Source of the DNA: Myxococcota bacterium
Lineage (GTDB): Bacteria > Myxococcota_A > UBA9160 > UBA6930
Length of the DNA stretch: 64,000 bases
NCBI GenBank assembly: GCA_965223415.1
Contig: OZ245002.1
Coordinates: 1,984,001 to 2,048,000, forward strand
Reading direction: 5' to 3'
A program made the translations under genes and the position numbers. A model generated the notes under the pieces. It did no database searches, was not told where the DNA came from, and was given only the letters and a program-made list of their open reading frames with translations. Positions within the stretch are counted from its first letter, which is position 1; each line of letters begins with the position of its first letter. Positions 2,947 through 34,037 of this stretch are shown piece by piece.

Positions 2947-3642
2947 TCAGTCGGAGGGCCAGAGATCGTGCGCGTCGAGCCAAGCCCAGGTACGCGAACA
3001 CGTTCCCATGGCGTCCGGTGTGGCACGCAGCACGCGGAGATCGTCCGCCGTGTCGATGTCGAAGCCCTCGGGGAGCAGCTCGGCGCGCAGCCCGAGACTC
3101 GCCGCCTGCGCCAGGGTGTCGCGAAGGACGGAGCCCGTGCTCATGGGGTGGTCGAACAGGCCGGGGGCCGGCCGGCGCAGGCCCACCAGGTTGTAGCCTC
3201 CGTCGCGGTCCGGGCAGAGCACGAGTTCGGCGCGGGCGAGGGCCGCAAGGGCGCCGGCCAGGGTGGCGCCGTCCAGGGCTGGACTGTCGCTGCCCCGCAC
3301 GAGGATTGGGCCGAAGCCCTCTGCCGCCGCCGCGGCGATGGCGTGCTCCATGCGTTCGGAGAGGTCGGCGCCCTGCTGGCCGACCACCGAGCAGCCCGGC
3401 GGCACCGGCACGCCTGGTGCGCCGACGGCACCTTCCGGGTGGATCGCGAGGCGCAGCGCCAGCCCCAGGGGCGGTGCCGCCCGCGCCATCGCCTCGAGCA
3501 CGTCCTCGAGCAGACACGCGTAGAACCCGGCGGCCTGCTCGGCCGTGAAGGGCGGACACAGCCTCGTCTTCACGGCGCCGGGCGCGGGACGCTTGGCGAA
3601 GACGATCAGCAGCGGGCCCCGGCCGGGCTCGCCGCGGCTCAC
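2947..3642 (-). CDS. DUF2064/CofC-like GT-A fold transferase
   Basis: LIVFAKRPAPGAVKTRL, QQGADLSERM, GSDSP, PDRDGGYNLVG, FDIDTADDL; GTGA overlap with the upstream gene. Confidence 0.85.
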   Translation of the reverse strand: MSRGEPGRGPLLIVFAKRPAPGAVKTRLCPPFTAEQAAGFYACLLEDVLEAMARAAPPLGLALRLAIHPEGAVGAPGVPVPPGCSVVGQQGADLSERMEHAIAAAAAEGFGPILVRGSDSPALDGATLAGALAALARAELVLCPDRDGGYNLVGLRRPAPGLFDHPMSTGSVLRDTLAQAASLGLRAELLPEGFDIDTADDLRVLRATPDAMGTCSRTWAWLDAHDLWPSD

Positions 3643-4598
3643 GGCGCGAAGGGCAGGGGGGCGACCTCGGCCTCGGCTTCGCCGCCATCCACCCGCAGCC
3701 GCGCGCCGGGCGTGGCCAGCTCCGCCTTCACGTAGCCGATGCCGATCGGCCCGAGGGCGGGCGAGTCGAGCGCGCTCGTCACCTCGCCCGCCCGGCGGCC
3801 CTCGTGGGCCAGCTCGGTGCCCGGTGCCGGCGGCGTGCCGGGGAAGCGCAGGCCGACGAGCAGATGGTTCGCGCGGCCGCGGCTGCGCATCCGCGCCACG
3901 ACCTCCTGGCCGGTGTAGCAGCCCTTCGTCTCGGAGACGGCGGCGTCCAGGCGCGCCTCGGCGGGCAGCACGGACTCGTCGAGCTCCCGGCCCATGAGCG
4001 GCTCTCCCATCTCGACCCGTAGGCACTCGGCGGCGTCGGGCTCGCCGTCCACCAGGCCGTGGCCCGCACCTGCCTCGCGCAGCGCCCGGGCGACCGCCTC
4101 GCCGTGGCCGGCCGGGACGAAGAGCTGGAGGCCGGGCAGCCCGGTCAGGCTGAAGGCCGCGACGCGGACCTCCTGGCCCGCGAGCTCGGCGTGGCAGCTC
4201 CCGCCGGCCTCCGGCACCGGGAGGATCGGCGGCAGCCGGCCGCCTTCGACGGACCAGCGCTCGAAGTCGTCGCTGCGATCCGCGAGGGTGACGTCGTCAG
4301 CGATGACGAAGCCCTCGAGGCGCTCGATCACGGGCCCGGCGGCGGCGCGCGGAAGCTCGAGCCAGAAGGCGTCGTCCGTGCACAGGACGTTCAGGTCCGC
4401 GGTGATGCGGCCCTGGCGGGTGAGCAGCAGCGCGCGGCAGCCGTCGCCCTGCGCGAGCGTCGTGACGTCGTTGGTCAGCATGCCGTCGAGCCAACGCACG
4501 CGCTCGCTCCCGCCCACCTCGATGACGCCGCGGTCGGGGCGCGGGAACAGGCCCGCACCGCTGCGGATCGCCGCCACCCGCTCGGCGAGGCCCGTCAC
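3639..4598 (-). CDS. ygfZ: YgfZ/GcvT-family folate-binding protein
   Basis: KGCYTGQE motif, RWLDGMLTNDV; GTGA overlap. Confidence 0.88.
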   Translation of the reverse strand: MTGLAERVAAIRSGAGLFPRPDRGVIEVGGSERVRWLDGMLTNDVTTLAQGDGCRALLLTRQGRITADLNVLCTDDAFWLELPRAAAGPVIERLEGFVIADDVTLADRSDDFERWSVEGGRLPPILPVPEAGGSCHAELAGQEVRVAAFSLTGLPGLQLFVPAGHGEAVARALREAGAGHGLVDGEPDAAECLRVEMGEPLMGRELDESVLPAEARLDAAVSETKGCYTGQEVVARMRSRGRANHLLVGLRFPGTPPAPGTELAHEGRRAGEVTSALDSPALGPIGIGYVKAELATPGARLRVDGGEAEAEVAPLPFAP

Positions 4599-5617
4599 GA
4601 AGCGTGCTCCGGCAGCCGCGCCACCGTCAGGTCCGCACGCGGCTCCGGCAGCGCGGGAGGTCCGTAGCGAGCGCGCACCGCCTCCTCCTGGCGCGCGTGC
4701 CAGTCGTCCCAGCGCTCTTGCATGACATCGAAATCGCGCTCGTTGTCCACGTCGACAGCGCAACCGCCACCCTCGGTGATGACGAAGCGGAAGCGGGTCG
4801 CCAGTAGCGCGCCCACCGCCCGCTCGACCCGCTCCAGGGCGATCCAGCTGCGCAGCCGATCCGCGAGCCAGCGCCAGCGGTGACGGTCGAACACGCCGGC
4901 CAGGTGCATCAGGCCGTAGTAGCCGAGTACGCGCAGGCCGCCGCCTTCGTCCCAGAAGATCCGCCACGCCAGCGCCAGCGCGTTGCCGAGTTGCTTCTGG
5001 TAGCGGTGCTCGTACATCTCCTCGATGTAGTTGCGTTTGCCGAGCTTCGGCGGCCGCACCAGGTGCAGGTTGCTCTGGCGCACGCGCCCCTCCCGCAGGT
5101 TGAAGTACGCCATCTCGATGCCCGGCGCGTCGGCGGTCGGGTAGAAGGGCGCCATGCTCTCCTCGGTCACGAGCCCGAGGGAGTAGTCGACGTCCTGGGC
5201 GATGGACTGCTGGATGAACGCGGAGATCTCCTGGGAGCTCGCCATCGGGATGTCCGAGGAGAGGAAGAGGACGAGCTGCTCCGCCTCCTCCGGCGTCGGA
5301 TCCCGGCCGGCGGGCCCGGCCCCGGGCAGGAGCCGCCGGTACGTCTCCCAGACGTTCTCGAGCAGGTTGCGGAACTGCGGCACCACCGCGAGCGGCTTCA
5401 CGAGCTGCCCCTCGAGCTCGCGCCGGAAGATCTCCTCCAGCCGCTCCGCATTCCCGACGACCCAGACCTCGCTCACCTCGGGCACCCGCTGCAGCACCGC
5501 CACCGCATGGGAAACGAGGCTCATCCCCCCCAGCTCGAGGTACGCCTTGTTGCCCCCGTAGACCGCCTTGGCGGCCCGGCCGTCCCCAGCCGCAACGATG
5601 GCAGGCACTTGTTCCAT
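4595..5617 (-). CDS. MobA-like nucleotidyltransferase family protein
   Basis: AIVAAG...NKAYLELGG N-terminus, LSSDIP, AVDVDNERD. Confidence 0.75.
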   Translation of the reverse strand: MEQVPAIVAAGDGRAAKAVYGGNKAYLELGGMSLVSHAVAVLQRVPEVSEVWVVGNAERLEEIFRRELEGQLVKPLAVVPQFRNLLENVWETYRRLLPGAGPAGRDPTPEEAEQLVLFLSSDIPMASSQEISAFIQQSIAQDVDYSLGLVTEESMAPFYPTADAPGIEMAYFNLREGRVRQSNLHLVRPPKLGKRNYIEEMYEHRYQKQLGNALALAWRIFWDEGGGLRVLGYYGLMHLAGVFDRHRWRWLADRLRSWIALERVERAVGALLATRFRFVITEGGGCAVDVDNERDFDVMQERWDDWHARQEEAVRARYGPPALPEPRADLTVARLPEHAS

Positions 5618-5630
5618 AGAACGAACCAGC

Positions 5631-5675
5631 GTACCCCGCCCCGAAGTACCCGGCCTCGAAGTACCCCGCCCCGAG
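5631..5675. repeat. 3 x 15-bp tandem repeat
   Basis: gtaccccgccccgaa / gtacccggcctcgaa / gtaccccgccccgag. Confidence 0.8.
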
Positions 5676-5679
5676 GGAA

Positions 5680-5790
5680 GGCTGCGAGCGGCCGAAGGCC
5701 GCAAGCGAAGCCCGAGGCAAGCGCCCTAGGCGCGCGCAGCGAGGCCCCGTGAGCCTTCGGCCCAGGGGAGCCGAGCGAAGCTCGCACGAA
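5680..5790. repeat. REP-like GC-rich palindromic element downstream of the tRNA
   Basis: Several small hairpins; shares CTCGCTGCGCGCGCC-N4-GCGCTTGC (reverse strand) with 47912-47938. Confidence 0.55.
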
Positions 5791-5791
5791 A

Positions 5792-5867
5792 TGGTGGAGC
5801 CGAGCGGGATCGAACCGCCAACCTCCGCGTTGCGAACGCGGCGCTCTCCCAATTGAGCTACGGCCCC
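5792..5867 (-). tRNA. tRNA-Ala(CGC)
   Basis: GGGGCCGTAGCTCAATTGGGAGAGCGCCGCGTT-CGC-AACGCGGAGGTTGGCGGTTCGATCCCGCTCGGCTCCACCA, 76 nt, CCA encoded, G3:U70 pair. Confidence 0.97.
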
Positions 5868-5941: not shown

Positions 5942-6388
5942 ATGGCCGTGGAGATCCGGCGAATCCTCGTCCCGATCGACTTCTCCGAGCATGCCGAGCC
6001 CGTCCTGGAGTGGGCCGCGCACCTGGCGGAGGAGCACGGCAGCGAGGTGATCCTCCTCCACGCCTACCACCTGCCGGTCGAGTTCCAGCAGCTCGAGGGC
6101 GCCTACCTCCCCCAGGACTTCTGGGACACGGTCAAGGACGAGGGACGCCAGGGCCTGGCCGACCACGAAGAGGCCCTGCGCACCCGCGGCCTGCAGGTGC
6201 GCTCGGTCGTCCGAGAGGGCTATCCCGCCACCGTGATCGAGGAGGAGGCCGCCGCCGAGCAGGTGGACCTGATCGTGCTGGGCACCCACGGCCTCTCCGG
6301 CCTCAAGCACCTGCTCCTCGGCAGTATCGCCGAGCGCGTCGTCCAGAAAGCCCCCTGCCCCGTCCTCACCGTCAAGCTCCCCGACTGA
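5942..6388 (+). CDS. Universal stress protein
   Basis: RRILVPIDFSE...DLIVLGTHGLSGLKHLLLGSIAERVVQKAPCPVLTV. Confidence 0.95.
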   Translation: MAVEIRRILVPIDFSEHAEPVLEWAAHLAEEHGSEVILLHAYHLPVEFQQLEGAYLPQDFWDTVKDEGRQGLADHEEALRTRGLQVRSVVREGYPATVIEEEAAAEQVDLIVLGTHGLSGLKHLLLGSIAERVVQKAPCPVLTVKLPD

Positions 6389-6389
6389 C

Positions 6390-6458
6390 GTGAGACAAAG
6401 GGACGTTCCTGACTGTCTCACGCTTCGTGAGACAGTCAGGAACGTCCCTTTGTCTCAC
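6390..6458. repeat. Perfect 33-bp inverted repeat with nested hairpins
   Basis: GTGAGACAAAGGGACGTTCCTGACTGTCTCACG-ctt-exact reverse complement. Confidence 0.95.
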
Positions 6459-8061
6459 TCTTCTCGCCGAGCTTGCCGGCGGGGTGGCGGGCGTGGTAGG
6501 CGGCGCGGGTGAAGCCGCGCTCCTCTTCGAGGGCGGCGGAGAGGGCGGCAAGGACGAGGAGCTCGGCGGCGACGCTGGCGCGGGGGGCCAGGCCGAGGCC
6601 GCCGCCTTCGCGCGCGACGCCGGCCTCGAGCACCACCTCGGCCTCCGCAGCGAGGGGGGACGACGCATCGCCGGTGACGGCGATGATCCTCGCCCCGAGG
6701 CCCCGCGCCGCCCGGGCCGTCGCCGTGAGTTCGGTGGCGCCGCTGTTGCTGATGGCGATCACTACGTCGCCCGCCACGATCTGGCCGGCGCTGCCGTGCA
6801 CCGCCTCGGTGCCGTGCAGGAACGTCGCAGGGGTTCCCGTCGAGCTGAGCAGGGAGGCCGCGTAGTGGGCCACGTGCTCGGGCTTGCCGATGCCGGTGAC
6901 GTGCACGCGGCCACCGGCCGCTTCGCAGGCGCGGATGCAGGCCACCGCTGCGTCAAAGGCGCTCCGGTCGATGCGCTCGCGAAGCGCAGCGAGCTCCTCG
7001 ACGGCCACGTCGAAAGCGCGTAGGGCGCGCTCGGCGGACGGGGTGGCCGCGCGGGTCACGGCCTCGGGCAGCGCCAGCTCCACCGGCGCGCCGTCGTAGA
7101 GCTCGCGCACCCGCGCGAGGGCGGCGGCCGGATCGTCGGGAAAGGCGCCGAGCTTCTCGACGCAGGCTGCGCCGCAGGCGCAGCCGAGCCGCGCCGCATC
7201 CTCCCAGCCCAGCCCCTGGGCCAGCGCCACCAGCAGCCCGCCCAGGAAGGCGTCGCCGGCTCCGGTGGTGTCGACCACCTCCTTCGCCGGGCGTGCCGGC
7301 ACACGCAGCGCGGTGCCCTCGGCCGCGAGTGCGCAGCCCGCCGCGCCGTCGGTCACCACCACGGCGCCGCTCCCGTAGCGCTCGCGCAGGGCCTGGGCCA
7401 CGGCCAGGGCATCGCCGGCGGCCTCGGGCACGAGCTCCGCCGCGGCGGCCTTGGCCGGCTTCAGCACGTCGGCCGCCTGTAGCAGCGCCTCGAGAGTCTC
7501 GGCGTCGCCGAGGCCCGGCACGGCGTCGGAGGGTGGCACGTCCAGGTCCAGCAGCGTCGGCACGCCGGCCTCCCGCGCGATCGTCAGCACGGCGAGGGCG
7601 GTCTCGAGGGGCAGCTGCGACACCTCGGTGGTCACCCGCGCGGCGCCGCCGATGAACGCCGCGTGGTGCTCGCGCACGAAGGCCGGCGTCGTCTCGGAGG
7701 TGGCGCCCGGGGCCATGTAGATGGCGCGCTCGCCTTCGTCGTCGACGAAGATGTCGGCTAAGGTGCTGGCCGAGCCGTCGAGCACGATGCGCCGCTCGAT
7801 GCCGAGGCGGTCCATCGCTGCGCGGAGGTAGCGCCCGCCGGCGTCGTCCGCCTGCCGTCCGAAGATGCCGGTCGGCAGTCCGAGAGCCGCGGCCCAGCCG
7901 AGATGGTTCAGCACCACGCCGCCGACCCTCTGCTCCTCCGTCACGCCCTCCCGGGCGTGGATCATGCCCTTCTCCTCGCCTCCGAGGATGCGCCGCACGC
8001 GGCGGATGCGATCCACCGCCATCGAACCGATGCCGATGGTGCGGCCGTGGCGGTCGCTCAC
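6436..8061 (-). CDS. PfkB-family sugar kinase fused to a KdsD/GutQ-like SIS sugar-phosphate isomerase
   Basis: N-terminal GGVVLN...DTTGAGDAFLGG (PfkB); C-terminal RVHVTGIGK...SSTGTPATFLHGTEAVHG...AISNSG...HPAGKLG (SIS); GTGA overlap with the aldolase. Confidence 0.88.
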   Translation of the reverse strand: MSDRHGRTIGIGSMAVDRIRRVRRILGGEEKGMIHAREGVTEEQRVGGVVLNHLGWAAALGLPTGIFGRQADDAGGRYLRAAMDRLGIERRIVLDGSASTLADIFVDDEGERAIYMAPGATSETTPAFVREHHAAFIGGAARVTTEVSQLPLETALAVLTIAREAGVPTLLDLDVPPSDAVPGLGDAETLEALLQAADVLKPAKAAAAELVPEAAGDALAVAQALRERYGSGAVVVTDGAAGCALAAEGTALRVPARPAKEVVDTTGAGDAFLGGLLVALAQGLGWEDAARLGCACGAACVEKLGAFPDDPAAALARVRELYDGAPVELALPEAVTRAATPSAERALRAFDVAVEELAALRERIDRSAFDAAVACIRACEAAGGRVHVTGIGKPEHVAHYAASLLSSTGTPATFLHGTEAVHGSAGQIVAGDVVIAISNSGATELTATARAARGLGARIIAVTGDASSPLAAEAEVVLEAGVAREGGGLGLAPRASVAAELLVLAALSAALEEERGFTRAAYHARHPAGKLGEKSETKGRS

Positions 8062-9146
8062 TCGTGGGCTCCCAGGTCCGGCGTCACCCAGGTGGGCACG
8101 AGCAGCTCGGCAGCGAGGCCGCGCACCTCCTCGAACATGGCGTCGAAGCGCTCGGCATCCGGGCGGGCGAGGGCCGGTGTGCCCTCGGCCACGGCGTCGC
8201 TCGAGATCACGCCCCGCGCGAGCAGCGCGCGCTTCAGGCACGCGATCGTCCGCTTGCCGCCGGCCGCGCGGGTGCCGACCCGGAACGCCTCGACCACCCG
8301 CTGCACCCGGTCCATCCGTTCCGCGTCGCCGGCGCGGCACAGCTGCCAGGCCCGCGCCCACTCCCGCGGCATCGCGTTCGCCGGGCCCGCCACCACGCCG
8401 ATCGGAAGACCGCCGCGCATCCGGTAGCGCTGCCAGTGCTCGGAGAGCGACCCGAGCCAGCCGCTCCGCGGCCGGAAGATCTCGAAGATCAGCATGGCGT
8501 TGCCCACGTAGATGCCGAACTCGCCGCGCTCGCGGAAGCCGGCGGCCGCCTTGGTGTAGTTGCCGAGCACCTTCTTCGACGCGCTCACCTTGATGCCGCG
8601 CACGAAGTCGAGGCGTGAGAGCGCCTTCACCTGGCGCGTGCGGATGTGCGGGATCGCCGGGTCCGCGGCGATGTCGGCGTTGTCGTACAGGTACACCGGA
8701 ATGCGTCGGGTGCGCGAATCGAGCAGGTCCGCGACGTCCCGCGCGACGAAGCGCACTGGATCGCCCAGGCCGCGGATCGAGAGCGGCGCCAGCACCGCCG
8801 CATCCACTCCCGCGGCGATCGCGGCGTCCAGGTTCTCGAGGGTCTCCTCGGGCGTGCGCGCGGTGACGCCGGCCCAGGCCTCTACCGGGCGCCCGAGGCC
8901 CGCGTTGGCCTTGGCCACCTCCTCGGCGCAGACCTGGATCACCCGTCGCTGGGTGGCTGCGCCGATGCGATCCCACTCGCCCGTGGTGCCCGCCGAGAAC
9001 ACCACGTCCGCCCCGTAGCCGTCCTGCACCACGAAGCGCACGACCGAGCGAAGGTCGTCCTCGATCAGCCGTCCGTCGTCACAGAGCGGCGTCACCACGG
9101 GCACCGAAAGCCCGGGTCTCGGCCGCGCGTCTTCGACCGTCCGCAT
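8058..9146 (-). CDS. DapA/NanA-family class I aldolase
   Basis: SVPVVTP, AGTTGEW, VYLYDN and RGIKVS (Schiff-base Lys) motifs. Confidence 0.85.
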   Translation of the reverse strand: MRTVEDARPRPGLSVPVVTPLCDDGRLIEDDLRSVVRFVVQDGYGADVVFSAGTTGEWDRIGAATQRRVIQVCAEEVAKANAGLGRPVEAWAGVTARTPEETLENLDAAIAAGVDAAVLAPLSIRGLGDPVRFVARDVADLLDSRTRRIPVYLYDNADIAADPAIPHIRTRQVKALSRLDFVRGIKVSASKKVLGNYTKAAAGFRERGEFGIYVGNAMLIFEIFRPRSGWLGSLSEHWQRYRMRGGLPIGVVAGPANAMPREWARAWQLCRAGDAERMDRVQRVVEAFRVGTRAAGGKRTIACLKRALLARGVISSDAVAEGTPALARPDAERFDAMFEEVRGLAAELLVPTWVTPDLGAHE

Positions 9147-9276: not shown

Positions 9277-9882
9277 TCAGACGGACTCGAAGAAGGTTCC
9301 TACGGGCACACCCAGGGCGGTGGCGACCTTGTAGAGGGTCATCACCGAGGCGGCGCTCTTGCCGAGCTCGATCTGGGAGATGAGGCTCACCGAGAGGCCG
9401 GTGCGGTTCGCCACCTGCTTCAGGGTGAGGGTCAGCTCGTGCCGGCGGCTGCGGATGCGCTCGCCGATGGCGGCATTCAGGCGCTCCTCCGGGTCGACCG
9501 CCAGCCCGTGCTCCTTCACCGCAGCGGAGAGGACGGGGCGCAGCTCGTGCACGGCGGAGGGGCGCTTCAGGTAGTCGAAGGCCCGGTGCTTCATGGTCGC
9601 CACCGCCGCCTCGACGCTCGGCTCGTCGGTCATGCAGATGACGCAGAGGTCGTCGTCCACCGAGCGGATCTGTTGGAGCAGCCCGATGCCCTCCTCACCG
9701 GGGCGGCCCAGGTCGAGGAGCACCATCTGGTAGCGCCCGTCCTTCACCTCGCGGGGCGCCCGGGCCGGCTCCTCGAGGGCGGTGGCCTCGTAGCCCTCCG
9801 CCGCCAGGAAATGGGCGAGCTGGCCGCGCAGGTGCACGTCCGGCTCCACGACGAGCACATTCAAGGGCTGGCTTCCTGCCAT
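9277..9882 (-). CDS. Response regulator with C-terminal XRE HTH domain
   Basis: Receiver motifs (VLVVE, VLLDL, AFDYLKRP) plus LTLKQVANRTGLSVSLISQIELGK. Confidence 0.9.
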   Translation of the reverse strand: MAGSQPLNVLVVEPDVHLRGQLAHFLAAEGYEATALEEPARAPREVKDGRYQMVLLDLGRPGEEGIGLLQQIRSVDDDLCVICMTDEPSVEAAVATMKHRAFDYLKRPSAVHELRPVLSAAVKEHGLAVDPEERLNAAIGERIRSRRHELTLTLKQVANRTGLSVSLISQIELGKSAASVMTLYKVATALGVPVGTFFESV

Positions 9883-9984: not shown

Positions 9985-12011
<2,027 letters not shown>

Positions 12012-12794
12012 TCACTCGACGGCGTGCCTCGGGACGACCACCGGACCCTCGGGTCCGGAGAGCACCTCCGCCTCGACGCCGAAGGCGCGGCGCAGGGCGT
12101 CGGGAAGCAGCACCGCTTCCGGCGTGCCCGCGGCGAGCACGCAGCCCTGGGCGAGTAGCGCGATGCGGTCGGCGGCGCGCACCGAGAGCGCCAGGTCGTG
12201 GGAGACGACCAGCGCGCTGCGCCCCTCCGCCGCCCACTCGCGCAGCAGCGCCAGCAGCTGGAGACGGCGGGCCAGATCGAGGTGGGCCGTCGCCTCGTCG
12301 AGCAGCAGGATGACCGGATCCTGGGCCAACGCCCGCGCCACCATCACGAGCTGCCGTTCGCCGCCGGAGAGCTCGAGGATGGAGCGCTCGGCCAGGGCGA
12401 GGAGACCCAGCCGTTCGAGGGCCGCGTGGGCGATGCGGCGGTCCTTCGCCGACTCGAAGCCCAGCAGGCCCTGGTGGGGCGTGCGGCCCATCAGCACCAC
12501 CTCGTCCACCCGGAACGGGAAGGGCACCGTCGTCTCCTGCGGAACCAGCGCCATCTGCCGGGCGAGCCCTCGGCGCCCGTGGGCCGCGAGGGGCCGCCCG
12601 TCCAGGCGGATGTCGCCCCGATCCGGCGCGAGCAGCCCGCAGGCGATCCGCAGCAGCGTGGTCTTGCCGGCGCCGTTGCGCCCGGCCAGCAGCAGCACCT
12701 CGCCGTGCCCGAGCTGGAGGTCGACGCCGGCCAGCACCGAACGGCCGGCGAGATCCACGCCGACGCCGGAGAGCGTGAGCAGGGCGGCGCTCAC
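12012..12794 (-). CDS. Cobalamin/iron-siderophore ABC transporter ATP-binding protein
   Basis: GRNGAGKTT, LSGGERQ, LLDEAT. Confidence 0.9.
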   Translation of the reverse strand: MSAALLTLSGVGVDLAGRSVLAGVDLQLGHGEVLLLAGRNGAGKTTLLRIACGLLAPDRGDIRLDGRPLAAHGRRGLARQMALVPQETTVPFPFRVDEVVLMGRTPHQGLLGFESAKDRRIAHAALERLGLLALAERSILELSGGERQLVMVARALAQDPVILLLDEATAHLDLARRLQLLALLREWAAEGRSALVVSHDLALSVRAADRIALLAQGCVLAAGTPEAVLLPDALRRAFGVEAEVLSGPEGPVVVPRHAVE

Positions 12795-13810
12795 GAAACG
12801 AACACCGCGCGGTGTCGGCGGCGCAGCAGGTAGAGGAAGAAGGGACCCCCGGCCAGGGCGGTGATCGCTCCGACGGGAAGCTCGCGCCCGCCGAGCACGC
12901 TGCGGGCCAGGGTGTCGCAGAGGATCAGGAACGCGGCTCCGCTGAGGGCGGCGGAGGGCAGGAGCAGCCGGTGGTCGGAGCCGAGCCGGAGCCGCAGGGC
13001 GTGGGGCACGATCAGCCCTACGAAGCCCACCAGCCCGGAGACGGATACGGCGGCCCCGACCATCAGCGAGGTGGCGACCAGCAGCAGCCGCTGCACCCAC
13101 ACCACGTCGACGCCGAGCTGCGCCGCCGATTCCTCACCCAGGGCCAACGCGTTCAGGGACCGGGCGAGCGGCAGCGCGCAGGCCAGTCCCGCCACCAGGA
13201 AGAGGGCGACCCAGCCGGTGGCCTCGCCGCGCACGTCGGAGAGGCTGCCGATCAGCCACAGGAAGATGCGCGCACCGTCCGTGAGGCCGGCCAGGGACGC
13301 CAGGAACACGATCGCCGCGGAGGCGAACGCGTTGAACACCACGCCGGTGAGAAGTAGCGACGTGCCGGCGAAACGCCCGACGGGGCCGACCACCGCGAGC
13401 AGCAGCAGGACCGTCGCCACCGCCCCGGCGAAGGCCGCAGGCGGTACCGCTGCGTAGCCCAACCCGAGAGCCCCGCCTAACGACAGGGCAAGGATTCCGC
13501 CCAGGGCCGCGCCACCGGACACACCGAGGATGAAGGGATCCGCGAGGGGGTTGCGCAGGAGCGCCTGATAGATGGCCCCGGCCACGGCGAGGGAGGCCCC
13601 CACCAGGCCCGCGAGCAGGACGCGCGGAACGCGCACCCGCAGCACGATGTCCGCCGCGGCCCCGTCGCTGCGTCCGGCCAGCGCTTCCCATGTCTCCGCG
13701 AGCCCCAGCGCACTCGGGCCCACCACCAGCCCGAAGCCCGTCGCCGCGAAGAGGATCGCGAGCAGCACCCCCGTCACGACCAGCCAGCGCCCCGGCGTGA
13801 GCGGACTCAT
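12791..13810 (-). CDS. BtuC/FecCD-family ABC permease
   Basis: RVPRVLLA, LRNPLADPFILGVSGGA, GFVGLIVPH. Confidence 0.93.
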   Translation of the reverse strand: MSPLTPGRWLVVTGVLLAILFAATGFGLVVGPSALGLAETWEALAGRSDGAAADIVLRVRVPRVLLAGLVGASLAVAGAIYQALLRNPLADPFILGVSGGAALGGILALSLGGALGLGYAAVPPAAFAGAVATVLLLLAVVGPVGRFAGTSLLLTGVVFNAFASAAIVFLASLAGLTDGARIFLWLIGSLSDVRGEATGWVALFLVAGLACALPLARSLNALALGEESAAQLGVDVVWVQRLLLVATSLMVGAAVSVSGLVGFVGLIVPHALRLRLGSDHRLLLPSAALSGAAFLILCDTLARSVLGGRELPVGAITALAGGPFFLYLLRRRHRAVFVS

Positions 13811-14682
13811 GGAGCGGACGCTTCCAGAGCGCCGGGGTGCACCGCCCCTACCAGCGCGCGGAGCGCCTCGTCGAGCTGGGGCCCCGGAAGGGTCACGAGT
13901 CCTTCCGGGAAGGAGACGATGCGTTCGTTCGCGACGGCGGGGAGCGAGGGCCAACGCCGCCAGAAGTCCGTGGCGGGCTCCGGGGCCCGGGCCGAGTCGA
14001 TCAGCAGGTCCGGCGCCGCCGAGAGCAGCCACTCCCGCGCCACCCGCGGATAGGAGCCCTCGAGCTCCGCGCCCAGGTTTCGCGCGCCGGCGCTCGCGAG
14101 CATCTCGTCGATGAAGCTCCCGCGGCCCACCAGAAAGAGCGGGTCCCGTTGCAGCACGAGCACCGTGCGCACCCGCGGCAGGCCGGCGACGGCGTCCTCG
14201 ACCTGGCGGCGCGTCGCCCGAATGGCCTCCGCCCGCTCGCGGGCGGCCGCGCTATGGCCGACGCGCTCTCCCAGGAGCTCGATGGTCTCCACCACCGCGT
14301 CGAAGCCCTGGGGATCCACGGCGAGGCGGGGCACGCCCAGGCTCGCGAGCCGGTCGCGGAAGCCGCGCTGCTCGGCGCTCGGCACGAGCACGACCAGATC
14401 GGGCCGCAGGGCCACCACCGCCTCGAGGCTCGGGTTGTAGAGCCCGCCGACCCGCGGCAGCTCCGCGAGCTCCGGGCGCTGGCGGGCCGAGTAGTCGTCG
14501 ACGCCGACCAGCTGCTCCCGGGCGCCGATCGCCAGCAGGATCGCGGTGAGCGAGGGGTTCAGCGAGACGATGCGCTTCGCGGGCGCGGCCGCGCGCTCGG
14601 CGGCCACCGGCTCGGCAGCCGAGGCCGGACCCGGGGAGAGGGCGAGGAAGACCCCGGCCCATGCGGCGACGAGGGCGCGCAT
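13807..14682 (-). CDS. BtuF-like periplasmic binding protein
   Basis: Signal peptide, RIVSLNPSLTAIL, EAVVALRPDLV. Confidence 0.9.
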   Translation of the reverse strand: MRALVAAWAGVFLALSPGPASAAEPVAAERAAAPAKRIVSLNPSLTAILLAIGAREQLVGVDDYSARQRPELAELPRVGGLYNPSLEAVVALRPDLVVLVPSAEQRGFRDRLASLGVPRLAVDPQGFDAVVETIELLGERVGHSAAARERAEAIRATRRQVEDAVAGLPRVRTVLVLQRDPLFLVGRGSFIDEMLASAGARNLGAELEGSYPRVAREWLLSAAPDLLIDSARAPEPATDFWRRWPSLPAVANERIVSFPEGLVTLPGPQLDEALRALVGAVHPGALEASAP

Positions 14683-31682: not shown

Positions 31683-32540
31683 TCAGCCCGCCGATTGCAC
31701 GGCGGCCAGGGGAAGGGTCGGTGGCTTGCGCGGCGGACCCGGGTAGCGCCGCATCAGCTCGCCGGCCAGGTCCAGGTAGGCGCGCGCACCCTTGGACGCG
31801 ATGTCGTAGAGCAGGATGGGCTTGCCATGGCTGGGGGCCTCGCTGAGCCGCACGTTGCGCGGAATCACGGTGGCGAAGACCTGATCGCCGAAGTGGGAGC
31901 GCACCTCCTGCTCGACCTGCCGGCTCAGGTTGGCGCGGCGGTCCATCATCGTGAGGACGATGCCTTCGATGCCGAGGGACGGGTGCAGCGCGGTGCGAAC
32001 CCGCTCGACCGTGTCACGGAGCCTCGCGAGGCCCTCGAGGGCGTAGTACTCGCACTGAAGTGGAATCAACACGCTATCCGCGGCGCAGAGGGCGTTCAAC
32101 GTCAGGAGGCTCAGGGACGGCGGGCAGTCGACCAGGACGAAGTCATAGTGGGGCAAAATGTCCACCAAGGCGAGCCGCAGGCGGCTCTCGCGAGCCTCGG
32201 CGGCCACCAGCTCGATCTCGGCGCCAGCGAGATCAGGCCCCGCGGGGACGATGTGGAGGTGGCCGAGCTCGGTTCCCACGGCGGCCTGGGGCAGGGTGCT
32301 CTCGCCGGAGAGGACGTCGTAGAGCTGATGCTCGGGGGAGGCGATGCCGTAGGCGCTCGAGGCGTTGGCCTGGGGGTCGAGGTCGACCAGGAGGACCGGG
32401 CGCTCGGCGGCGGCGATGGAGGCGGCCAGGTTGACGGCGGTCGTGGTCTTGCCGACGCCGCCCTTCTGGTTGACGACGGCGAGGACGCGGGCGCCGGTGG
32501 GGGCGCTGTGGTGGGCGTCTTGGATGGTTGGCTCTCTCAC
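31683..32540 (-). CDS. parA: Chromosome partitioning ATPase ParA/Soj (start approximate)
   Basis: NQKGGVGKTTT, DLDPQAN, DCPPSL, PRNVRLSEAPSHG. Confidence 0.96.
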   Translation of the reverse strand: MREPTIQDAHHSAPTGARVLAVVNQKGGVGKTTTAVNLAASIAAAERPVLLVDLDPQANASSAYGIASPEHQLYDVLSGESTLPQAAVGTELGHLHIVPAGPDLAGAEIELVAAEARESRLRLALVDILPHYDFVLVDCPPSLSLLTLNALCAADSVLIPLQCEYYALEGLARLRDTVERVRTALHPSLGIEGIVLTMMDRRANLSRQVEQEVRSHFGDQVFATVIPRNVRLSEAPSHGKPILLYDIASKGARAYLDLAGELMRRYPGPPRKPPTLPLAAVQSAG

Positions 32541-32600
32541 CCCGGGGCAGGTTGTGCCCCTAACCGGTCGTTGTATCACTGGGTCCTGGGGGCGTCCAGG

Positions 32601-32616
32601 TGTTCCACGGGGAACG
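32601..32616. promoter_or_regulatory. parS site (variant)
   Basis: TGTTCCACGGGGAACG, upstream of parA. Confidence 0.8.
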
Positions 32617-32631
32617 TCCTCTGGGCGGGGG

Positions 32632-32849
32632 TCTCTTGCGGGACTTCGGGGCGGGGGCCGGGCGGGGGTGCTTGCGCTGGTCTCCTTGCCACCGAGGTGT
32701 GCGGGGCAGGGCCCTTTCTTGCCGGAGAGTCGGCACCGGGGATGGATGGAGCTCCAGGGCGTCTGGAGGGCCCTGGCGGGGCGGGTGGGCACTTGCGGCC
32801 TCATGGCGGGATCCGTCGCTCGCTCCAGCACCCCCGTCCGGCCCTCGGG
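32632..32849. repeat. About 220-bp non-coding direct repeat, copy 1
   Basis: Highly similar to 33650-33869. Confidence 0.93.
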
Positions 32850-32951
32850 AAGGCTGGGCGACATCGGTCCCGGGGGAGACGGTCGGGGGGGGGGGGCTCG
32901 TGCGAGAGGGGGTGGCGACCGGTTTCGTGGGGTCAAAAAGGGGGAGGTGGG

Positions 32952-32967
32952 CGTTCCATGGGGAACG
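32952..32967. promoter_or_regulatory. parS site (variant)
   Basis: CGTTCCATGGGGAACG. Confidence 0.7.
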
Positions 32968-32996
32968 GTGGTGGGCCGCTGGGTTCGCGGGGCGGG

Positions 32997-33608
32997 TTAG
33001 GCGGCGGCGGTCGTGAGGGTGACGACGTGGCGGGTGGTGCCGGCGAGGGGGTAGGGGTGGAGATGGGCGGCCGGGGGGAGGTCGTTGGGGGGGTGGGGGC
33101 CGGTTTGGGCGAGGATGCGGCCGCCGGGGCGGACGGTGGGGTGGGCTCGTTCCAGCCAGGCGGTGAGGGGCCAGGTGGCCCGGGAGACGGCAACGTCCCA
33201 GGCGGCGTCCGGGGGGAGGTCTTCGAGGCGGGCCCGGAGGGCTTCGGTGTTGGGGAGGGGGAGCTCGCGGATCATGGCGCGGAGGAAGGCGTGCTTCTTG
33301 CCGTTGGGCTCCAGGAGAGTCACCCGGGCGTCGGGGCGCAGGATGGCGATCGGGATGCCGGGCAGGCCGGCGCCGCTGCCGACGTCGAGAACTCGGAAGG
33401 GCCGCTCGGGCAGGTGGGGGAGCAGAGGAAGGGCGTCGGCCACGTGCTCGGCGAGGATGGCCTCGACGCTCGTCGCTCCGGTGAGGCGGATGCGTTGGTT
33501 CCAGGCGTGGAGGCTCTCGGCGTAGCGGCGGAGCTGGTCTTCCTGGGGCGGCGAGAGCTCCAGGCCTCGGGCCAGGGGGCCGAGGGCGGCGCGGACGTCG
33601 GGGCTCAC
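32997..33608 (-). CDS. rsmG: 16S rRNA m7G527 methyltransferase
   Basis: WNQRIRLT, HVADAL, LDVGSGAGLPGIP, KKHAFL, VSRA. Confidence 0.93.
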   Translation of the reverse strand: MSPDVRAALGPLARGLELSPPQEDQLRRYAESLHAWNQRIRLTGATSVEAILAEHVADALPLLPHLPERPFRVLDVGSGAGLPGIPIAILRPDARVTLLEPNGKKHAFLRAMIRELPLPNTEALRARLEDLPPDAAWDVAVSRATWPLTAWLERAHPTVRPGGRILAQTGPHPPNDLPPAAHLHPYPLAGTTRHVVTLTTAAA

Positions 33609-33649
33609 CGGCAGTGGGTTCCACGGGGGGTGGTGGTTTGGCGGGGGGC

Positions 33650-33869
33650 TCTCTTGCGGGGCTGCGGGGCGGGGGCCGGGCGGGGGTGCTTGCGCTGGTC
33701 TCCTCGACACCGAGGTGTGCGGGGCAGGGCGCTTTCTTGCCGGAGAGTCGGCGCTTTGGAGACGGATGGAGCTCCAGGGCCTTGGGAGGGCCCTGGCGGG
33801 GCGGGTGGACACTTGGGGCCGCATGGCGGGATCCGTCGCTCGCTCCAGCACCCCCGCCCGGCCCTCGGG
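33650..33869. repeat. About 220-bp non-coding direct repeat, copy 2
   Basis: Highly similar to 32632-32849. Confidence 0.93.
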
Positions 33870-33978
33870 GCGGCCCGGCCGGTGACGGCCCGGTGGGAGA
33901 TGTTCGGGGCGGCTCGCGCGGTCGGGGGGGGGGGGGGGGGGGGTGACTGGTCCGGTTAGATGGGAAGGGGGAGAGGGG

Positions 33979-34037
33979 CGTTCCACGGGGAACACGTGCA
34001 GCGTCTCGGAGGCCGCTCGCGTGTTCCCCGTGGAACA
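33979..34037. promoter_or_regulatory. Two parS sites (variant), inverted relative to each other
   Basis: CGTTCCACGGGGAACA (33979-33994) and TGTTCCCCGTGGAACA (34022-34037). Confidence 0.8.

Follow-up and report, generated by a model that had tools for sequence, protein, structure and literature searches.

A divergent aldolase-like gene coupled to a PfkB kinase-SIS fusion in uncultured Myxococcota, with a possible meeting of three activities at D-arabinose 5-phosphate

What does a divergent aldolase do together with a sugar kinase fused to a sugar phosphate isomerase, when the two genes overlap by four nucleotides? The question is raised by two genes in a window of 64,000 nt from Myxococcota bacterium GCA_965223415.1 (contig OZ245002.1, positions 1,984,001-2,048,000); the window is the whole stretch of DNA analysed here, and all coordinates refer to it unless a locus of another genome is named. 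One gene encodes an aldolase-like protein, the other a PfkB-type kinase joined to an SIS domain. An initial annotation, made from the sequence alone, proposed that the pair encodes a linear route from 3-deoxy-D-manno-octulosonic acid (KDO) through D-arabinose and D-arabinose 5-phosphate (A5P) to ribulose 5-phosphate (Ru5P). Almost all Gram-negative bacteria need KDO for their outer membrane, which makes the synthesis of this sugar a target for drugs. What was observed directly, as described below, is how the domains are arranged, which catalytic motifs are conserved, that the genes are coupled and that natural fusions exist. Tentatively, we favour a different arrangement of the pathway, in which the three activities would meet at A5P.

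Architecture and catalytic residues of the two proteins

Both genes are located on the minus strand, as first described. The aldolase-like gene (8058..9146) starts with ATG, is read from 9146 to 8058 and encodes 362 residues. The fusion gene (6436..8061) starts with GTG, encodes 541 residues and ends with the stop codon at 6436-6438. The sequence GTGA (8058..8061, minus strand) is common to both, the start of the fusion gene overlapping the stop of the aldolase gene in an arrangement of translational coupling. An 846-residue open reading frame (6436..8976) is an upstream extension of the fusion frame only, explained by the G+C content of the window of approximately 71%, and is no separate gene. 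The Pfam scan bore out the proposed architecture of the 541-residue protein: a PfkB domain at residues 11-307 (PF00294; 7141..8031, minus strand), an SIS domain at residues 385-507 (E 1.8e-15) and no CBS match. By NCBIfam and PDB alignments the SIS domain extends over residues ~349-536 (6454..7017, minus strand), and the protein ends approximately five residues after the HPAGKLG helix; this motif and the others quoted at first (TGIGK, STGTP, EAVHG and SNSG) are all found in the translation.

The SIS domain is of the KpsF/GutQ/KdsD type, without the CBS pair. These three families were its best NCBIfam matches, with 115.4 bits for KpsF (cut-off 203.7), 112.9 for GutQ (481) and 110.4 for KdsD (505), scores that fell short of the cut-offs since the match was confined to the SIS half of the model (positions 1-152 of 268). 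The best PDB matches were 5uqi (2.7e-30), a single-domain isomerase that we take to be c3406 of E. coli CFT073, the SIS domain of KdsD (2xhz, 6.7e-23) and 3etn of B. fragilis (7.4e-22); the Listeria SIS protein 3fxa was much farther away (7.5e-13). Identity to E. coli KdsD was 43-46% (43.6% over 140 aa). Five KdsD residues that we take to form its active site (K59, H88, E111, E152 and H193) correspond to K393, H422, E444, E485 and H526. Across 30 diverse relatives each of these positions showed either no variation or a conservation of at least 90%. The KdsD numbering was counted along the 2xhz alignment, in which residue 59 is Ala because the structure is that of the K59A mutant. The family matches, the nearest structures and the five positions all support the domain as A5P-isomerase-like, as had been read from its motifs. 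The SIS fold and the five positions are common to the domain and to E. coli KdsD, GutQ and KpsF, which differ in that the SIS domain of the window is without the CBS pair and is fused behind a PfkB kinase. Its closest relatives of solved structure are the single-domain SIS isomerases 5uqi and 5vhu, both named 'phosphosugar isomerase', and 3etn, with which it shares the SIS-only limits; these are free-standing proteins of ~200 aa, whereas the SIS domain here is the C-terminus of a kinase.

The kinase domain matched PF00294 with 140.7 bits (cut-off 25.8, E 8e-41) over model positions 7-296 of 302, and its AlphaFold (AF2) model reached a predicted local distance difference test (pLDDT) score of 93.8. 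The nearest structures were ribokinases and the sulfofructose kinase YihV (TM-score, TM, 0.77-0.90); the full-length PfkB fold is shared with RbsK, and the ribokinases had a TM of 0.80-0.90 at 24-29% identity. In common with RbsK and the PfkB family, the window kinase has a conserved GG dipeptide, Asp17, Asn52 and DTTGAGDAF. In the anion-hole and catalytic-Asp motif VVDTTGAGDAF, residues D264, T266, G267, G269 and D270 were conserved in at least 90% of 30 diverse relatives, where several sugar-site residues were nearly invariant as well. The motif NXXE, which forms the Mg/phosphate site in the PfkB family, is absent: the P-N-E-T-E of ribokinase aligns with P-A-K-A-A in the window kinase, and 25 of the 26 kinase-bearing relatives in the alignment are also without NXXE, P0287 alone having PNETE. 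In the HMMER alignment with RbsK, D16 and N46 are kept as D17 and N52, and three of the five sugar-contact positions differ (N14 to A, K43 to V and E143 to Q). The roles of the RbsK residues are assumed here, N14 and K43 presumably contacting ribose hydroxyls.

Two more specific assignments of the kinase were rejected. A ribokinase orthologue was ruled out by its TIGR02152 score of 105.5 bits (cut-off 299.65) and by the altered sugar pocket, and a kinase of the 2-keto-3-deoxygluconate (KDG) kinase type by weaker and partial matches of 33-59 bits.

The aldolase-like protein matched the Pfam family DHDPS (dihydrodipicolinate synthase, PF00701) with 33.4 bits against a cut-off of 22.1, over residues 12-118 only. 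At least 120 relatives, with lengths of 340-406 aa and 72-100% identity, support the full-length gene call. Its AF2 model (pLDDT 90.8) had as top Foldseek match the N-acetylneuraminate lyase (NAL) of C. glutamicum, 5c54 (E 1e-16, TM 0.87, 21% identity), and many further DHDPS, NAL and YagE entries were found; against NAL and DHDPS structures the TM was 0.81-0.88 by target length, at 14-21% identity. The TIM-barrel fold is shared with NAL, DHDPS and YagE, as are GTTGE (residues 53-57), the Tyr of beta5 (Tyr154) and the Lys of beta6 (Lys186, codon 8589-8591), three motifs that are invariant in the clade of the window protein. It differs from them in its low identity, in being ~60 residues longer and in its central third (residues ~125-250), which neither phmmer nor a profile search against the PDB could align by sequence to any solved relative, only the N- and C-terminal thirds being alignable. 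We also take it to carry YDNADIA in place of the YNxP(S/A)(R/L) loop and G-N-A for the sugar motif G-x-D-E of NAL. The AF2 model places K186 within strand 182-187 and Y154 within strand 151-155, with strand 48-51 preceding G53-E57; by this placement, made by motif and strand and not by residue-level superposition, Lys186 is the presumed Schiff-base lysine.

The fold of the aldolase-like protein is confirmed as DHDPS/NanA by its model, and a class I aldolase-like catalysis is predicted. The first assignment, 'DapA/NanA-family', holds at the superfamily level, by fold and motifs, and fails for the DapA and NanA families proper. A true DapA (4-hydroxy-tetrahydrodipicolinate synthase) was ruled out by a TIGR00674 score of 30.1 bits against 206.15, so that the protein is not the true DHDPS which the initial annotation had named as the alternative, and NanA was ruled out since TIGR00683 and NF003164 were absent from the five NCBIfam matches at E<=0.01. 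A complex prediction for the aldolase and the SIS domain scored 0.01, which gives no answer either way.

Distances of this kind would also suit enzymes acting on a different sugar, with an SIS isomerase for another ketose/aldose phosphate, an aldolase for the matching 2-keto-3-deoxy (phospho)sugar acid and a kinase that feeds in a different sugar, and with KDO not involved. Such an explanation, which we regard as somewhat unlikely, draws on the scores far below the KpsF, ribokinase and DapA cut-offs, on the middle of the aldolase that aligns by sequence to no solved relative, on a kinase sugar pocket unlike that of ribokinase and on single-domain SIS homologues, which can be glucose-6-phosphate isomerases. 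It sits poorly with the identity of the SIS domain to E. coli KdsD, with the retention of all five KdsD positions and with the top three PDB matches, all of them structures of the A5P isomerase (API) type.

Coupling of the genes across genomes and fusions elsewhere

The loci compared here were obtained by one scan of species-representative genomes with the aldolase-family alignment; of the 131 relatives found, the 80 best were used, all of which are closely related. They originate from uncultured metagenome-assembled genomes (MAGs) of Myxococcota type, with 66-91% aldolase identity. In two of the 80 loci the sequence stops at the aldolase; the other 78 continue downstream. The kinase was immediately downstream of the aldolase in 74 of these 78; the SIS domain was also seen in 69 of the 74, the other five being cut by the contig end. 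A start codon with a 4-nt overlap on the aldolase stop was available in 59 of the 78 loci, and in 63 of the 69 the kinase and the SIS domain formed a single open frame. The aldolase and kinase-SIS genes are functionally linked, and their pairing, which recurs in 80 species-level loci, goes far beyond chance. Across loci, the aldolase had a median identity to the window of 71%, the kinase of 64% and the SIS domain of 68%, compared to 75% for the neighbouring enolase.

In the six other loci of the 69, the kinase and SIS frame was interrupted by one stop (L004, L014 and L037) or by a frame change (L005, L067 and L071). These may be natural splits of the fusion, L067 and L071 being sisters on the tree, or assembly errors. 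The aldolase match of L012 (5062-6153 of that locus) contained an in-frame stop, which points to a pseudogene or to an error in sequencing. Loci titled 'uncultured Spirochaetales/Spirochaetaceae', 'Chloroflexota' or 'Proteobacteria' (L007, L028, L041, L043, L048, L049, L062-L065, L074, L076, L077 and others) interleaved with the Myxococcota MAGs on the aldolase tree and displayed the same synteny; their bin labels look unreliable.

The remaining four of the 78 loci (L009, L011, L017 and L074) lacked the kinase: the aldolase was followed directly by a stand-alone SIS gene, and a kinase search of these loci gave no match at E<1e-10. In L017, a complete chromosome of 4.54 Mb, the SIS gene of 197 aa starts 4 nt before the aldolase stop. 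On the aldolase tree, made by a quick IQ-TREE search, the four loci formed two nested pairs inside kinase-bearing clades, which implies that the kinase was lost at least twice. A search with the L017 SIS protein showed that stand-alone SIS proteins of ~196-220 aa are common, on long contigs, and six of them lie on contigs equal in length to contigs with aldolase matches. CBS-bearing SIS proteins were not found among the best 120 relatives of the L017 SIS.

Fusions of the kinase and the SIS domain are abundant. A total of 1853 proteins scored at E<=0.001 as relatives of the fusion, with both domains in all of the 120 best listed, and an exhaustive search of 1.84 billion representatives yielded 176 fusion relatives below 1e-30. 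Five of the best 150 of these 176 harboured an aldolase-like domain of this family. The protein P0269 (895 aa) joins aldolase, PfkB and SIS in one chain; its aldolase is 35% identical to that of the window and keeps GTSGE, the Tyr and the Lys. P0263 is built in the same way, whereas P0378 and P0353 consist of an aldolase-like domain and SIS without a kinase, and P0318 has a partial aldolase-like region only. P0263, P0378 and P0353 represent a sister clade whose aldolase-like domain has other residues at the Lys, at the Tyr and throughout the GTTGE loop, next to an intact fused SIS domain; the aldolase-like domain of this clade looks like a pseudo-enzyme kept as scaffold or sensor. In an independent case, P0320, a different DHDPS subfamily (with the Lys in FLKDT) is joined directly to the same type of SIS domain, without a kinase. 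Domains would by this comparison have accreted around an A5P isomerase, a kinase and an aldolase taking the place of the CBS pair, with a pseudo-enzyme stage in sister lineages.

The dead aldolase-like domains show that some lineages need nothing but the SIS activity, and they would fit an explanation in which the SIS domain is the housekeeping KdsD of the lineage. The kinase and the aldolase-like protein would then stand in for the CBS pair as accessory, regulatory or scaffolding modules and would themselves catalyse little or nothing. The kinase without NXXE, the housekeeping and universally conserved locus and, weakly, the lack of CBS-bearing SIS proteins among the best 120 relatives of the L017 SIS all agree with such a role. 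The aldolase catalytic residues, however, are kept in the clade of the window and in P0269, and the GAGD/Asp motif of the kinase and several of its sugar-site residues are nearly invariant in 30 diverse relatives, the pattern expected from selection on active enzymes. On balance we consider the explanation by accessory modules unlikely.

Some further fusions were recorded. P0346 and P0367 (528 aa) have the reverse order, SIS followed by PfkB (204-227 bits), also match Phos_pyr_kin in part, and appear to be an independent kinase/isomerase fusion of a different family. P0276, P0281 and P0282 (576-594 aa; PfkB and SIS, 34-38% identity) have N-terminal extensions and an amino acid composition of low-GC type and may be eukaryotic, perhaps algal, versions with targeting peptides. 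Look-alike clusters were seen in Acidobacteriota, Binatota and Verrucomicrobiota and are leads only.

Possible reactions around D-arabinose 5-phosphate

Every substrate and reaction direction in this section is one that we infer. In the reading favoured here, which we put forward with caution, the three activities would meet at A5P. The SIS domain would interconvert Ru5P and A5P, as KdsD does. The DHDPS-fold enzyme would form a Schiff base between Lys186 and pyruvate and would interconvert KDO 8-phosphate (KDO8P) with pyruvate and A5P, the latter as the open-chain aldehyde. The kinase domain would be an accessory feeder that phosphorylates a free sugar into the A5P pool, the simplest case being D-arabinose. 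The steps of aldolase and isomerase would thereby adjoin each other and form the invariant core, from which the kinase can be lost. If the partner of the aldolase is A5P itself, any two of the activities adjoin in the pathway, which leaves the kinase optional. Operons and fusions without a kinase fit this arrangement and do not fit the chain of the initial annotation, because that chain places the kinase between the aldolase and the isomerase.

The linear chain would cleave KDO to pyruvate and D-arabinose by the aldolase, phosphorylate D-arabinose to A5P by the PfkB kinase and isomerize A5P to Ru5P by the SIS domain, for scavenging or recycling of KDO. The coupling of all three genes speaks for it, and a single kinase-SIS frame in most loci is what would be expected of consecutive steps. 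The kinase is ribokinase-like and not KDG-kinase-like, and the changes of N14 to A and K43 to V, at the presumed contacts to ribose hydroxyls, would suit D-arabinose, the C2 epimer of ribose. Thermodynamically, cleavage would be the favoured reaction. Enzymes of the NAL family handle D-arabinose and KDO and condense pyruvate and D-arabinose to KDO with ~1% relative activity (PMC4016182). The chain is nevertheless strained by the kinase-less operons of two clades with aldolase and SIS intact, by the many stand-alone SIS partners, by the aldolase-SIS fusions P0320, P0378 and P0353 without a kinase and by the missing NXXE. A scavenging role is further weakened by the absence of any KDO transporter or KDO-releasing hydrolase nearby and by the housekeeping synteny, which are unlike a typical scavenging operon. 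We find the linear chain rather doubtful.

For the arrangement around A5P, the direction leans to supply or synthesis rather than scavenging. The core of aldolase and SIS would be self-sufficient only in the synthetic direction, from Ru5P and pyruvate to KDO8P. The lean to supply also takes account of the lack of a transporter or hydrolase, the housekeeping setting and a conservation near that of enolase. No sugar transporter, glycosidase or kds/lpx gene was found in the unit or in the 64-kb window; an ABC transporter encoded on the far side of enolase belongs to the FecCD/siderophore type. In 76 of the 80 loci an enolase gene precedes the operon in the same orientation, and the housekeeping synteny is kept across the lineage.

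A bolder version, which we consider quite unlikely, is that the lineage makes KDO8P without KdsA and classical KdsD: the SIS domain would give A5P, the aldolase would add pyruvate in place of phosphoenolpyruvate (PEP), the kinase would salvage pentose and the dead aldolase-SIS fusions would be relics. With E. coli protein queries, no kdsA, kdsC, lptA or lptC was detected in the window and the 80 loci (1.27 Mb, a part of the genomes only), and no CBS-type kdsD was present in this sequence either. If the favoured reading is right, the window aldolase shares the product KDO8P and the substrate A5P with KdsA, the PEP-dependent KDO8P synthase, from which it differs by an unrelated fold and chemistry, KdsA using PEP and no Schiff base. 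The operon could then form or break down KDO8P independently of PEP.

Several points weigh against a meeting of the three activities at A5P. The aldol equilibria of the DHDPS/NAL family favour cleavage, which argues against a synthetic role, and we know of no pyruvate-dependent KDO8P aldolase. The kinase may be slow or inactive, because the NXXE motif is missing. SIS homologues of this type can differ in specificity, the Listeria protein 3fxa being a glucose-6-phosphate isomerase. The fusion of kinase and SIS in one frame fits an order of kinase followed by isomerase equally well. The fusions P0263, P0378 and P0353 bear no witness to two consecutive catalytic steps, because the Lys, Tyr and GTTGE of their aldolase-like domains have been lost. 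Finally, free KDO is the substrate of the KDO aldolase that has been described (EC 4.1.2.23; cited in PMC12199768).

The three folds are all known; new are the way they are combined, the clade of divergent aldolases and the pathway that is implied. To our knowledge, EC 4.1.2.23 is without an assigned sequence and no gene has ever been assigned to D-arabinokinase (EC 2.7.1.54), and the operon gives concrete candidates for both. It is found across a whole uncultured myxobacterial lineage, and elsewhere the functions are carried by a single polypeptide. The fusion had been thought undescribed, and a full-text literature search, with subscription journals largely outside its coverage, yielded no publication that deals with the operon or with the fusion; the latter is, on the other hand, abundant in databases and automatically named there, for example as 'ribokinase family / D-arabinose 5-phosphate isomerase GutQ'.

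Surroundings of the operon

The gene upstream of the aldolase, at a distance of 130 nt on the same strand (9277..9882, minus), encodes by Pfam and NCBIfam a response regulator with a receiver and an XRE-type helix-turn-helix (HTH) domain. It is possibly the regulator of the operon, and its membership in the unit is uncertain. A homologue was present in 44 of the 80 loci, many of which are cut by contig ends, and its position is the same in L017. At the other end, a perfect palindromic hairpin with a 20-bp stem (6401..6447, both strands) spans the stop of the fusion gene. A terminator scan gave eight terminator-like sites against 0.9 expected, six of which were this hairpin, and it is a probable two-way terminator between the operon and a convergent usp gene that ends at 6388. 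A promoter scan gave no sites in the window. In the Rfam scan of the window only a tRNA and a match of the hairpin were obtained, the latter a sub-threshold hit to a plant microRNA family (48 bits vs 95) that is surely due to chance. The tRNA-Ala(CGC) gene (5792-5867, minus) lies beyond the operon end. In L017 the sequence directly after the SIS gene (~11715-11800 of that locus) translates like a tRNA gene, and the junction of operon and tRNA seems conserved. The near neighbours of the operon are enolase, tRNA, usp and YgfZ-like genes, and the wider window contains rsmG, yidC, gyrB, gyrA, ATP synthase, uvrA, bioB and bioF.

An unusual combination of three genes in a row was noted at 2947-5704 (minus). 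One belongs to the TIGR04282/DUF2064 family 'arsenosugar biosynthesis glycosyltransferase' (152 bits, cut-off 134), and the others encode a YgfZ/GcvT-like folate-binding protein and a MobA/IspD-like nucleotidyltransferase of 369 aa.

With a MobA-like nucleotidyltransferase and a TIGR04282 glycosyltransferase-like gene 0.7-3.5 kb away, a route to a nucleoside diphosphate (NDP)-activated D-arabinose, similar to that of ADP-heptose, has to be considered. The SIS domain would produce A5P and the PfkB kinase arabinose 1,5-bisphosphate, to be followed by a phosphatase and a nucleotidyltransferase. The heptose-7-phosphate kinases HldE and HldA are PfkB members, and the rfaE_dom_I model matched the kinase at 1.2e-16. 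A phage precedent runs from API through an A5P 1-kinase and a phosphatase to UDP-arabinofuranose (PMC13326640). In GmhA and HldE, and in the phage pair of API and A5P 1-kinase, an SIS isomerase is followed by a kinase acting on its product, as would be the case here; these routes differ from the operon in that they need a phosphatase and a nucleotidyltransferase and include no aldolase, the phage kinase being in addition of another fold. A route of this kind has no role for the aldolase, the most tightly coupled partner, and the kinase is dispensable in operons where aldolase and SIS persist. The rfaE_dom_I match covers residues 195-306 only, whereas the ribokinase model matches the full length, and the convergent usp gene, the terminator hairpin and the tRNA separate the transferase genes from the operon. 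An activated arabinose as the product is very unlikely.

Two composition outliers were recorded in the window, one at 32001-34000 with a GC skew of +0.276 in the rsmG (gidB) region and one at 12001-14000 with an AT skew of +0.328 over the FecCD transporter genes. Given that yidC, gyrB and gyrA are also present, the window may be located near the replication origin.

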